NCBI GenBank assembly: GCA_951406725.2
Contig: OX597831.1
Coordinates: forward strand, 15,748,001-15,812,000
Length of the DNA stretch: 64,000 nt
Origin: Octopus vulgaris
Taxonomy: Eukaryota
Direction of reading: 5' to 3'
The notes under the pieces were generated by a model. It had not been told where the DNA came from, did not search any database, and saw only the letters and a program-made list of their open reading frames with translations. The position numbers were made by a program, and so were the translations under genes. Of the stretch, positions 605-24,076 are shown piece by piece (position 1 is the stretch's first letter; each line of letters opens with the position of its first letter).

Positions 605-649
605 CGAATGTTAAACTGCTTCCAACTAGTTAACTCTTCGACGGTCGTA
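605..649 (-). CDS. Gene A exon 4 (45 nt): TTVEELTSWKQFNI(R)
   Basis: tttttcag acceptor, gtaact donor; WKQFNIR conserved in all copies. Confidence 0.75.
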
Positions 650-1629
650 CTGAAAAAAATATTTCATATATTAGGATTCATATTAATACCCCCTATTCCA
701 AGTTCATTTTTTATCTCCAGAGTTACGTTCATCAATTGGATTCAAGTTCATTATACAAATACCTATGTGCTAAGTTTCAACTGTTTGAATTATTATGAAG
801 AATTAAAGCAGATTCTTATTTATTTCGTTATCGCGTTTAAATTTTGCATGATATAGTTTTTTCTCATTGTGTGTGAAATTATAAAAATATTACAATTGCA
901 AGTGTAATATCGCTAAATATGTTGCTTGGAATAAACACAGGAAATTTGATCGATGTTATCGTATTGCCACTATATCATCGATTATCTAACGTTTGTGTAC
1001 CGAGTTAAAAACAAGAATCGGTACTACACGAGATCTAATTGACCAAACGCTATAAGTGTACAGCATTTGGTTGTCATTCGCATCGATTTAATGGTAGACC
1101 AATATTTCAATGATAAATATTGTTTCGAATTATGGGACAAAGCTTGTAGGATACGAATTTCAATGATGAAATGTCATGATGCCAGTGGACACTACACGTG
1201 TTACTAAGTCCATTGTTTCGTGGAATCTTTCTCTTGCAACAACTAATAACAATATACGTTACAAAAGATGACATGTTTTGTATTTCAAATATGAACTTCA
1301 TTTGAATGAATGAGAAAAGTTTGTACGCTATCGTCTCACTGAATAAACTAATGTAAGTGTCATTTAGAATGAATTACGCACAAACAAAGTAAATTAAATT
1401 AATTACCGCAGGAATGCAATGATCAGTAAAAAGGTTGTGGAAATAGTGACCACAGTCTGCACGCACATCTTTTAGGCAATCATAATAATAAATCCAACGT
1501 CTGTAAGATAAATATAAAAAGGTTTTCATTTCGGATGTATTAATGTCACTGTCAAGAAATGGTGATTCTCGAACTACGAGAGCTTACCATGTATACGGTT
1601 CTGTAATCGGTGCTTGGCAGAGTGCTTAC

Positions 1630-1653
1630 AAGTTCTTGCATATAAATCATTTA
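1630..1653 (-). pseudogene. Gene A exon 3 (24 nt): K*FICKN
   Basis: aaatcag acceptor, gtaagc donor; TGC>TGA relative to paralogues. Confidence 0.65.
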
Positions 1654-1699
1654 CTGATTTATATTAAATCGAATTCTCTTGTAACCGAAAAAATCTTCA

Positions 1700-4400
1700 T
1701 TTTTTTTAGCTGTCTTGAAAACAACTTGCAAGTGTTGGAGTTCCACCCTATCAAAACATTTCGATTGATCCCAATTGGTGAGCACTCCAGACATGCCACT
1801 TTCCTTACCCACCTTCTCTATTATGTAGCGCGTGGGGTGCATTTTGTCGTGAATATTACTGTTTGGGGTAGCGCCAGTCTGCGCGTCAATAATCAGCTCA
1901 TTAACAAGTGTCAGCCCCTTGGCTACTACTGTATAATCGACATAAAGCTGAGTTATAGACTGAAAATTATCCATTTTGTCTCGCTTATTCGACTTCTTCC
2001 TCAACATTACCACCACTCTATCCATGGCTTAAGCACTAGGAATTTTCCCATTCTGTTGCCAGTTGTAGACGTCAGCCAAGAAACTATCAAACAAGTCTGA
2101 CAAATTTAAATAAAACTCGAAGGCCAGACCATCCCAACCCGGAGATTTCTCTCTTGCGCAGTCCGTTATCGCATCCCATGTGTCTTCTGCTGTTATTAGC
2201 ATTTCGCAGAACACCGCATCCCTGGCTGAGAGGCGCGTCATGTTGCTGATTTAAGAGGTGTAATTCACTACCGTCCTAGAATCACTGCGCGCTCCATACA
2301 GTTCGGTGAAGTGCCACCGAAATACTGCCCACTTTGTCTTGCATTGGGTTATCATGCTCACGCAGACTGAATTGTTGATTTGTATCGACGTAGTGCTTGG
2401 GTCATCCGGACCCATCAAATGGCTTTCGTCCCTTCTCGTCTTAGTGCAAGTGTCCTAGCTTTGACACCCTAACCTTCATGCTTCACATTTGATAATTGGT
2501 CAAGTATCAATCTCGCTGCAGAAAGCGCCGACCGCTATTCCTTCCCATAGAACCACTTCTAGCTCCGTTATTAGGTCACTCCCTATCCTAGATTCCTCTA
2601 ATGCTGTTACTAAAATCTATCGCCACTACTATTAGAGGCCGTTTTAAGAGTATCTGCCATCCGTTGTTTATTGCGCTCGCCATCTGTGAATGGGCTAACT
2701 TGCTAACCTGGACTACGAAAGTTTGGCCTACCTGTAAGGACGCCTTTATCTTCCAGTTTCGAGAACTGCAAATATCGCCGGCCGTTATTCCTTCCCCTAT
2801 CGCCACTTCTAGCTCCCTAACTCGGTCTCCCTCTGTCCTAGATTCACCTAACACTATGATTAAAATTTTCTGCCTCTAGTATAACAGGCCGTTTTAAACC
2901 TACCATCCGTTATTGACTATTGCACTCGCTAACTCTCGATGGACTAACTTGGTAACCTGTTCTATGAAATCTTCGCTCGCCAGGAAGGATGCCTTCAGCT
3001 TTCAGTATCCAGGACACTCTCAGACGTACAGATCACAAATTTATGGTCCGCGTAGCCGACGATTTTGAAATGAGGATAACTCATACTACTTGTATGTACA
3101 GGCCATCTGAATACCATCTGGAAGGCCCGATGCACTTCGACCATCTTCACATTGGGGTATTCAGTAACTGTCATCCAACTGGAAGGAACGTGGCAGGATT
3201 GTGCGGTTTTTACACCCCACTTCTCCTATCAGTATGAATAAATCAGGATGCCCTGCCCCCGTGTGGGTGTTAACAGCAACCACTCATTGACCAAAATCGT
3301 AATCTGCGGTTCCAGGAAGATCATTCGAACTTCGAAATGCAAGCTTTCCTACAGAGCAGTGTGACATTGCCTCCCATTACGGGCCGATAACAGATTCGAT
3401 AATCTCTTAATCGTCGAAAATGAATATAAATTAACGTGTGTCGTAAATTCCAGCCTAACTGGCTGCTATCATATCCAAACCTAGTGACCTGACGTCCTTG
3501 AGAAAGCGACCTGTCTTCCAGGGTGGTTTCAGGTCAGGAACATTTAGACAGACTACTGAGACAATCGCAAATGTTTCACGCGGAAAATCTGTCTGGATTT
3601 CTGTGTATGCTTGGAGGGGTAGACCATGGGTGTTGTAAATTGCAAACATTCTCTCAATCTCCTTGTTTCTGGTTGAGAGCCAACAAATATTTGTTGTGTC
3701 ATCTCACGAGCACTAAATTCGATTTTTCCGTATTGGTGACTGTGAGCATGGGGGCTACGTGTAGTGCCTCCGTGTGGTTGTGGGTGCATTGATCGACTTA
3801 GCTCGGGTAGTGGTGATTGTGCGAATGTTGGTGCAGGTGTTGTTTCTGTTGTGTCTATTTTCAATGTGTTCGGGGTGTGGGGGATGCTGTGTTTTCGGGT
3901 GTTGGTGTAGGATTCTCTGTTTTCTCTTCGTTTGAGGTGGAAATGTTCTCTGTAAGATCTGTCACGGATTGGCAGTGTGTCTGTGTTAGTGTTAGTCTCT
4001 TTGTGTAATTGTATGCATGAGACAGGTTACGAGGAGTCCCTTTTCAATGATACTCTGAGTGCATTCCCCCATTGAAAGAGGCTCAAATACGTCAGTCGTT
4101 TATGGAGATGAGGCTATCACTTCATTAAGAGATATCGGCCGTTGCTCTTGCTGGGGATGCAATGTAGTCTTTTTCGGGCAGAAGTCACTGAGGTGGCATG
4201 CGGGACTACAGATGACGTATCTTGATTTCCTGACTTCCACGTCGAGACATAGTTCCAGCTCTTTGGACAGCAGGGTCACGTCCGGGATCTTCTTGATATC
4301 TGGATTTACATAGATTAATAATTTCAAGTTGATCTCACACAAAGTTCTCATGCCTCACCCGTTTTACCTCCAAGAGTGACTCTGTTTTATGCACGACACA
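1700..4400 (-). mobile_element. Degenerate L1/Tx1-like LINE in intron 2 of gene A
   Basis: Broken RT motifs KSPGWDGLAFEFY and DQSKCFDRVE; ORF1-like knuckle remnant at 4100-4351. Confidence 0.75.
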
Positions 4401-5144
4401 GATAACAATCCAAAACACGTGTACTCCCCAAAGCACGCTATTTACGCAAATTATAGTTGTTATCTTTGGGAGGTAGGTGGGATATTGACGACAAACTCCT
4501 TAGGCCACCGAGGTGGCACAGCATGACTTCGGGCGAGACCCTCGCTTTTAAAGGGGACCTCAAAGCTGGTAAACTGCTTCCCTCTCTGTATATGTGCCTC
4601 ATCTATGAAGATATCTCTGAGGAATTCCTCGATGTGACTAATGAAATCAGTTTCTGCTCATTTACTTCTTCTCTATTGCCTCTATTATTTCGGTTGGTAC
4701 GAGCACTACAACCTTACATCATCAAAATTAATGATGTCTTTCGCTTTTGAGAGTTCACGTGTTTTGTCCTCGAGTGTGATTGCAAACATTTCTCTCTTCG
4801 TGATCGCTTCATCAGCAAACATTTTATTTTTGTCATTGTTTTTTTTGTTGTCGTTGCTGTTTTTATTCTTGTTACGTCTGTGCTATTGTTGCTGCTGATG
4901 GTGGTGGTGCCGTTGTGGCCACTTTACCTGTTGCCACATTCACAACTATTGTCACCTTTATTTCCCTCCAATCCGCTTTGAATAATAGCATTATTTTTTC
5001 CGCTAAAATCCGTAGCATTATTAATGAAAACGCAATATCTTCTACTATTGTCACTCCTACCTCTTCTGGTGGCTTGTCATCTTTACTAATTGTAAACACA
5101 CACATACATATATATATATATATATATATATACATATATGCCAC

Positions 5145-22790: not shown

Positions 22791-22876
22791 CTTAAGAGTA
22801 GAAATGAAAATTAAATAAATTTGTCTCGACACAAATTTATTGGCTGATATTAAAAATATTAACATTCGATAGTTAC

Positions 22877-22906
22877 TCATTTTGCGATACTTTCATTCTC
22901 GTACAG
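22877..22906 (-). CDS. Gene B exon 5 (30 nt): CTRMKVSQN(D)
   Basis: ttcag acceptor, gtaact donor; only the phase-2 frame is open in both B and C. Confidence 0.75.
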   Translation of the reverse strand: MYENESIAK

Positions 22907-23512
22907 CTGAATTTGAGATTAAACAAGAGGAAAACATGTTACATGCTATATACTTCTTTATATATCATTACAATTATAGAATTATTTAATAATGCGGAAG
23001 TTCACTGCTCATATTCGGAATATTCGTCAGATTTCACCAGACCTGCAATGTGACAAAAATATGTTCAATAGAGTGGTTTTAGCAGAGGTAATCTTTTATT
23101 CTTTGAAATAAACATGTAATTATAAACGTAATTTTAAGGAAAACGTATGTTTAACTGATTTATGTGCGTGTTCTCGTGTTTTATCCTTCACCTCTTAAAA
23201 ACCGCTGTTTGTTTGATGACGTCTCCGTATCATTCTCCATTTGCGAAATGGCACCAATAGTATAAATACTGGAGTTGTTTTCTTGTACAGAACCCTTAAA
23301 TGTGGTGCTCTAACATGACCGCAGTCCTACGATAGAAACAAGCAATACTATGCTAAAGTTGCTGTACAGTTCTTTCTTATATATCTCTCGCATTTTATAT
23401 AGTCTACTTTGTGTATATCGCACCAAGATAATATTGGGAAGTGAGCGAAGGCATAAATGAATAATAAACTATAGTAAAATATATTTATTTACATTAAAAT
23501 TTCAATAATTAC

Positions 23513-23558
23513 CGAATGTTAAACTGCTTCCAGCAGCTTCAGTTTTCAGGTATTCTTG
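23513..23558 (-). pseudogene. Gene B exon 4 (46 nt, one extra base and in-frame TGA)
   Basis: tttcag/gtaatt sites retained; one base longer than the A/C exons; TTA>TGA upstream of SCWKQFNIR. Confidence 0.65.
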
Positions 23559-24052
23559 CTGAAACGAAAATTTGATATATTAGGATTCATATTAATACCC
23601 CCTATTTCAAGTTCATCTTACCTCCAACAACACTATTATGTATTCGATATAAGCTGATTGTATTTATGTGTTAAATTTTTACTACATGAAATATAATGAA
23701 GAATTGATGCAGATTTTTATCTATTTTGTTATCGCTATCGTCTCACTGAATTAACTAATGTGTCTCTTAGAATTAATTATGCAGAAACAGTCTACATTAA
23801 AATAATTAACTCACGTATGCATTTAGCAGTAAAGCGGTTGTGGAAATAGTGAGCACAGTCTACCCTCACTTCTAGCAGGCAATCATAATAATAAATCCAA
23901 CGTCTGTAATAGAAATAAAAGAAAACGATTTTAATTTCGGTTAAAAATAAATCATCAACATCATTGTCAAGAAATGGTGGAACATTACTTCTCGGACTAC
24001 GAGAGCTTACCATGTATACGGTTCTGAAATCGGTTCTTGGCAGAGTGCTTAC

Positions 24053-24076
24053 AAGTTCTTGCATATAAAGCATTTA
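24053..24076 (-). CDS. Gene B exon 3 (24 nt): KCFICKN
   Basis: cag acceptor, gtaagc donor, phase 2-2. Confidence 0.7.

Follow-up and report, generated by a model that had tools for sequence, protein, structure and literature searches.

Three tandem copies and their exons

The 64-kb window analysed here (Octopus vulgaris contig OX597831.1, positions 15,748,001 to 15,812,000) holds three copies (A, B and C) of one gene, which a self-comparison of the window places in the same orientation on the minus strand. Coordinates are positions in this window, and all exon ranges are on the minus strand. The predicted product is a small, secreted, cysteine-rich protein; the gene is unannotated and has no relative in the protein, family and structure libraries searched. 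The surrounding DNA is AT-rich, with many (TA)n and (AAT)n arrays and transposon-like repeats; such repeats also lie between the copies. Copy A extends past the window start, and only the first 2 nt of its exon 5 are inside (positions 2-1). Both A and B carry disabling changes in short exons, and an earlier note on this DNA proposed that skipping those exons could rescue both genes.

Exon 1, absent from the earlier gene model, was located for A (coding part 21838..21874) and B (41811..41847). The A exon comprises an ATG, a 12-residue hydrophobic, signal-like peptide and a phase-1 GTAAGT donor; the B exon shares this donor and is likewise signal-like and intact. The signal call was made by hydropathy only (best 9-residue Kyte-Doolittle means of 3.56 in A and 3.27 in B). 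About 500 nt upstream are conserved between A and B, and exon 1 of C was not found within 52100-64000. Immediately before exon 2, a hydrophobic frame was considered as the start; it has no ATG common to the copies and was dropped given exon 1.

Exon 2 (100 nt, phase 1-2, C-x7-C-x16-C) lies at 5377..5476 in A, at 27534..27633 in B, where it is intact, and at 56389..56488 in C (window sequence). Three short exons with AG..GT ends and phase 2-2 come downstream. The likely exon 3 (24 nt) is at 1630..1653 in A, 24053..24076 in B (intact, two Cys) and 51867..51890 in C; exon 4 (45 nt) is at 605..649 in A and 50811..50855 in C, both intact, and at 23513..23558 in B; and exon 5 (30 nt) is at 22877..22906 in B and 50239..50268 in C. 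The coding part of exon 6 occupies 22757..22790 in B, where it holds C-x7-C and ends in TAG, and 50109..50151 in C, with ATTAAA at 22709 and 50072, respectively. Exon 6 of B is duplicated in tandem at 22600..22686, where the acceptor is weak.

Between exons 3 and 4, all three copies contain a further segment of about 90 nt, segment X, which the earlier exon list omitted. Its full extent is 1374..1500 in A, 23792..23903 in B and 51584..51716 in C, and its short form covers 1500-1407, 23903-23815 and 51716-51626. It is open in the phase-2 frame only, in all three copies, and keeps C-x7-C-x11-C, with no gaps over 88 nt. When alignment columns were shuffled, an open frame in three copies with at least three shared Cys arose in about 1 in 10,000 shuffles (one frame, chosen post hoc). 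Its acceptor tract (13-14 of 17 pyrimidines) is stronger than those of exon 2 (7-9/17), exon 3 (8-9/17) and exon 4. Read from its sequence, X is likely an exon and would be coding. In A and C it ends either at a possible phase-0 GTAATT donor (after 1407 in A, after 51626 in C) or in a run-on to a stop aligned between the two copies (1376-1374 and 51586-51584). B has lost this donor and has instead a phase-1 GTGAGT donor after 23815, with a run-on stop at 23794-23792. X may thus serve as an alternative last exon by read-through to its stop.

A phase-2 start is common to exons 3, X, 4, 5 and 6, and exons 3, 4 and 5 are symmetric. Skipping any of these three in frame, as the earlier note held, is therefore geometrically possible on the window sequence. 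Other versions of exon 3 were rejected: a 66- or 90-nt phase-1 exon is open in B and C, but exon 2, which ends in phase 2, cannot join it, and the 2-nt deletion of another copy would shift its frame. A further AG..GT pair, also conserved and enclosing 13 nt, lies 29 nt past the exon-3 donor (1629-1588, 24052-24011 and 51866-51825); the two donor regions are alike and resemble an old micro-duplication. A 13-nt exon after a 29-nt intron gave no open frame with X and was also rejected.

Lesions, divergence and copy turnover

In the window sequence, the TGC found in exon 3 of B and C is a TGA in A (1649-1647), which bears out the change first reported. Exon 4 of B has one extra base near 23548 (placement ambiguous), making it 46 nt, and a second, independent lesion, a TGA at 23541-23539 that stands in place of the TTA of A and C in the donor-side frame. 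Exon 6 of B ends in an early TAG, three codons before the C stop. The two broken exons keep intact splice sites, and every copy shows variation in the 5' half of exon 4. When exon 3 is read, A meets a stop at residue 47, and B does so at residue 57 via the 3-4 route, 92 and 63 nt, respectively, before the last junction. Nonsense-mediated decay follows a rule of 50-55 nt, established for mammals, and both stops exceed that distance. The A stop would therefore make A a likely decay target, and transcripts with the broken exons may be degraded in this way. Two intron deletions accompany these changes: A lacks about 0.7-0.8 kb, in a gap ending about 37 nt upstream of exon 3, and B lacks about 0.5 kb of the X-to-exon-4 intron.

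Of the coding length, 28-37% is in symmetric exons. The chance that all lesions fall in them is about 0.08-0.14 for two independent lesions and about 0.02-0.05 for three, and their placement is therefore only mildly unusual, a weak signal. From exon lengths, both B lesions would fall in one and the same exon of any kind with p ~0.19. As a separate observation, X up to the GTGAGT donor (89 nt) and exon 4 (46 nt) sum to 135 nt in B, and exons 1-2-3-X-4-5-6 then form one frame, broken only by the TGA. The shifted X donor offsets the extra base, which has a one-in-three chance and could be compensation; the same join is out of frame in A and C.

Public DNA contigs of four runs were aligned to copy C. 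Runs X1, X2 and X5 represent three studies (one may be the source), and the fourth, X12, is shallow, with three intron-spanning, DNA-like contigs and no splice joints. Loose ends and joints in X1, X2 and X5, matched by eye, correspond to A- and B-specific sequence, which indicates that loci A and B are real. All three deep runs contain the deletion-like joint of B, and two contain its exon-6 duplicate, as a joint from 50154 to 50067 in X2 and a loose end in X5 (C coordinates). Four contig records have mismatch and gap patterns that fit neither A nor B (approximate, as they come from different aligners), pointing to at least two further copies. Another copy in the contigs has a 2-nt deletion at 51856, just outside exon 3, and a net 3-nt difference from C across part of X is also seen in another copy.

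Over copy C, about 0.3% of sites read differently in the contigs and in the window. One such site is base 51882 in C exon 3, where all covering contigs disagree with the window in 3/3 covering runs (4, 7 and 4 contigs); the window base is likely an assembly error or a private allele. The contig reading removes one Cys, leaving one in this exon, and the 8-Cys frame that the earlier note took as shared by the copies is therefore shaky: under its model, C would have seven Cys.

Divergence among the copies is concentrated in exons 2 and X, both compared without gaps. In exon 2, A and C differ at 41/100 sites, where pooled introns reach 16-18% (Fisher p 9e-9); the divergence from C is 41-46%. For X, 27/88 (A-C) and 30/88 (B-C) sites differ (p 9e-4 and 1e-3 against the same introns), so that divergence from C (31-34%) is about twice that of introns; between A and B, X is at the intron level (16%). 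In all three pairs the proportion of nonsynonymous differences (pN) in exon 2 exceeds that of synonymous ones (pS), with small counts (pN/pS of 0.28/0.10, 0.44/0.28 and 0.49/0.36). The ratio, also from small counts, is about 1 or below in X and below 1 in exons 4-6.

Intron 4 gives a different picture. Between A and B only 13/602 sites differ (98% identity), and the distal ~538 nt (3..540 in A) contain only two differences, whereas the long introns between exons 3 and 4 have diverged by 17-22%. This near-identity beside diverged upstream introns is likely the trace, on sequence grounds, of a recent gene conversion or crossover.

Readings of the broken copies

Our data suggest, with a probability of about 0.5, that the breaks in A and B are ordinary decay of duplicates in a hypervariable secreted family that evolves by birth-and-death and gene conversion. 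The marks of birth-and-death turnover are present: three copies in the window and at least two more in contigs, disabling changes in two of the three, and a 98% identical A/B intron 4. Broken copies in a tandem family are ordinary, and this process, which the earlier note had named as its alternative, fits at least as well as rescue by skipping. Copy A is likely null, and the exon-4 route of B is likely lost. Further changes in B also speak for decay (the early exon-6 stop, the exon-6 duplicate, the lost X donor and the ~0.5-kb intron deletion). Exons 1+2+3+X of B form an open 90-residue frame with 8 Cys, reached without skipping exon 4 inside a 3-5-6 product. The best explanation is that B is a pseudogene, or yields nothing beyond a product that ends in X; neither case calls for a dedicated skipping programme.

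Under decay, the gene would encode a precursor of about 80-120 residues with a signal peptide, whose Cys modules would be helical, as far as low-confidence models of single exons suggest. Tandem duplication would multiply copies, with unequal crossing-over and conversion driving their turnover; mature-region exons would change fast around fixed Cys, and some copies would die. B would meanwhile keep two open 8-Cys routes, 3-X and 3-5-6.

Several points weigh against decay. In B, a single symmetric exon holds both lesions (p ~0.03), and the frame is open in exons 1, 2, 3, X and 5. Copy A is free of further coding lesions in exons 1, 2, X and 4, and on the promoter side its sequence is conserved relative to B. 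The A intron deletion, ~37 nt before the exon-3 acceptor, could weaken that acceptor, and 1647 itself is possibly a private allele or assembly error, given the ~0.3% difference between the window and the public C contigs. Exon 3 has diverged no further than the introns (4/24, p 0.78), has a pyrimidine-poor acceptor and may not be an exon. Finally, no convincing exon restores the frame between X, with its phase-0 donor in A and C, and exon 4: a scan of this interval found that A and C share only AG..GT pairs of 2, 5 and 8 nt, with weak sites and at chance level. The 8-nt stretch (1334-1327 in A, 51546-51539 in C) would restore the X-exon 4 frame, and the B deletion removes its donor.

The best-placed rival, plausible though unlikely, has B alone functional through a skip from exon 3 to exon 5, with exon 4 decaying afterwards and A null. 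Its appeal lies in the two independent lesions in a single Cys-free, 45-nt exon, which mildly favour, as judged from the sequence, loss of that exon alone. As the earlier note predicted, the skipped frame of B reads through with 8 Cys; its other exons are open too, and the exon-6 stop costs only three residues. These features are offset by the intact splice sites of exon 4, by the variability of its 5' half in all copies, which makes lesions there less surprising, and by the X-ending route, which is equally open.

Rather doubtful is a modular gene, in which phase-2 cassettes 3, 4 and 5 would be spliced combinatorially, together with X and 6 as alternative last exons, into cephalopod secreted proteins, and duplicates would split isoforms by cassette loss (exon 3 in A, exon 4 in B). 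Both X and exon 6 carry a predicted C-x7-C helix module. Such a gene would be a convergent, simpler counterpart of the micro-exon genes (MEGs) of schistosomes.

The original proposal, that A and B are both rescued by skipping symmetric micro-exons under a schistosome-like splicing programme, now appears improbable. If true, it would mean duplicates partitioning splice isoforms through exon loss. It draws on the phase-2 starts of exons 3, X, 4, 5 and 6, the symmetry of exons 3, 4 and 5 and the lesions within them (p 0.02-0.14), and on the signal-like exon 1, the excess of pN over pS in exon 2 in three of three pairs, the A intron deletion near the exon-3 acceptor and the lack of a second lesion in A. 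Several supporting claims stand only in part. The TGA is the only visible defect of A across exons 1-4, and A leaves the window at the start of exon 5. Defects of B are confined to exon 4 as regards the extra base and TGA, but not the early TAG and duplicate of exon 6. Removing two Cys together by skipping exon 3 fails for C, where the contigs leave one Cys and hence no pair. A cryptic AAG acceptor in B exon 4 does leave an in-frame 24-nt exon (from 23536), but its tract is weak (6/17 pyrimidines, the poorest among acceptors scored), it adds an odd, ninth Cys, and the same AAG is present in the intact C. Moreover, exons of 36 nt or less account for only 54 of the 269-360 coding nt, and the exon list behind the proposal lacked X in all copies and exon 1 in A and B. 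Literature searches on octopus micro-exons and on rescue by skipping found nothing.

We give equally little credence to the view that exon 3 is not real, so that exon 2 joins X (or exon 4), A is unbroken and the normal protein has the 6-Cys pattern C-x7-C-x16-C-x8-C-x7-C-x11-C. Exons 2+X do give six Cys in B and C, and the intron-like divergence and poor acceptor of exon 3 fit. Yet all three copies keep its GTAAGC donor and CAG acceptor, and the acceptor of exon 2 is equally poor. Exon 3 also completes a C-x2-C motif and, in B, a C-x10-C-x7-C spacing as in exons 5-6, and the 2-nt deletion of another copy at 51856 falls just outside it.

There is a slighter chance still that the lesions arose in assembly or are alleles private to the individual sequenced. 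Base 51882 of C, only two nt from the equivalent of the A lesion, is contradicted by 15/15 covering contigs in three runs, and the ~0.3% of differing sites adds to this concern. At that rate, about one private change would be expected over the A coding length, and roughly 1/20 of changes would make a stop; B has two separate lesions, and the recovery of its deletion-like joint in 3/3 deep runs and of its exon-6 duplicate in two argues for a genuine locus.

Recoding of the A TGA, as selenocysteine in a CxxU motif or through A-to-I editing to Trp, has heavy RNA editing reported for cephalopods in its favour (PMC9068888). No selenocysteine insertion sequence (SECIS) family was among the Rfam matches in three regions, and none of six matches to the SECIS core pattern folded below -11 kcal/mol; the A exon-6 untranslated region is outside the window. 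We regard recoding as barely credible: the A TGA does align with a Cys of the C-x2-C motif, but the B TGA aligns with Leu, TGC to TGA needs one base change only, and a G 5' of the target A, as in TGA, disfavours A-to-I editing.

Surroundings and comparison with known systems

Much of the sequence around the exons is mobile. Intron 1 of A (16 kb) and of B (14 kb) is largely retroelement-like repeats, and degraded retroelement-like frames lie at 61700-63100, 33310-34245 and 36946-40776. Upstream of B exon 1, a 3.6-kb element (45275-48858) with ~529-nt inverted repeats at 95% identity and an internal 395-codon open frame is likely a young DNA transposon. A short interspersed nuclear element at ~5130-5300 and the microsatellites are presumably octopus-like; a literature search on the motif of the former gave no match. 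At 22400-22700, only ~300 nt, with an (AAT)n array among them, part the poly(A)-like signal of B from the start of the conserved upstream region of A.

Homology and fold queries were single exons, and protein candidates comprised only those of ~77 residues or more. Within this scope, protein searches scored 0/51, 0/291 and 0/23 candidates. The sole full HMMER match, P0001, an 816-residue Thr/Cys repeat protein, sums eight weak stretches and was judged spurious; it comes from one ENA contig and has only sub-threshold Ig-like and DUF matches in Pfam. Five of seven queries had no Pfam family and the other two had sub-threshold matches, both queries to PDB sequences returned 0, and neither of two ESM Atlas queries gave a usable match. 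Structure models were helical, with predicted local distance difference test (pLDDT) scores of 53 and 68, and fold searches with them retrieved generic hairpins only (best Z 5.4).

Crustacean hyperglycaemic hormone (CHH)/ITP-like peptides are helical with a six-Cys pattern. Our gene resembles them in its C-x16-C-x2-C spacing and in the helical hairpin predicted for exon 2, likely by coincidence; it has an extra N-terminal Cys and other later spacings, and the single-exon scans of Pfam, PDB sequences and folds found no match to this group.

Schistosoma MEGs are defined by coding sequence lying mainly in symmetric exons of 36 bp or less (PMC8293314) and are described with 10-20 very short exons, mostly of 15 bp (PMC10526429). 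They combine a signal peptide, small in-phase exons, tandem copies among transposons and fast-changing coding sequence (PMC8293314, PMC10526429), and the octopus gene is alike in its secreted-type exon 1, small in-phase exons, tandem copies amid transposons and fast coding change. The likeness drawn by the earlier note does not extend to exon structure: only 54/269 nt (20%), or 54/360 nt (15%) with X, lie in exons of 36 nt or less, and counting the 45-nt exon the share is 28-37%, still not mainly short exons. The octopus gene has 6-7 exons of 24-100 nt (tiny exons could escape a DNA-only reading). Elevated dN/dS also belongs to the MEG profile; in the octopus gene, from small counts, pN exceeds pS in exon 2, and the ratio is about 1 or below in X and below 1 in exons 4-6. 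Skipping in MEGs is seen in transcripts, whereas our copies are known from DNA, and we found no sequence homology between the two. By exon size and number, the octopus gene thus falls outside the definition and is not a micro-exon gene.

Closer to home, the coleoid genomes treated in one survey are reported to contain same-direction tandem arrays, likely pseudogenes, gene conversion and families unlike known proteins (PMC9068888). Our copies share with these clade-restricted arrays their common direction, likely pseudogenes and conversion, and lack of resemblance to known proteins, and the family is not named in the sections of that survey considered here (PMC9068888). Exons about twice as divergent as introns are typical of venom, defence or gamete-recognition proteins, which makes this family a fair target for work on tissue expression. 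In conotoxin-type families, signal and introns are conserved, mature exons are more divergent than introns, Cys positions are fixed and copies turn over by birth-and-death. We found no homology to them, and the mature region here is spread over several exons; by analogy, the octopus family would work in the same way.

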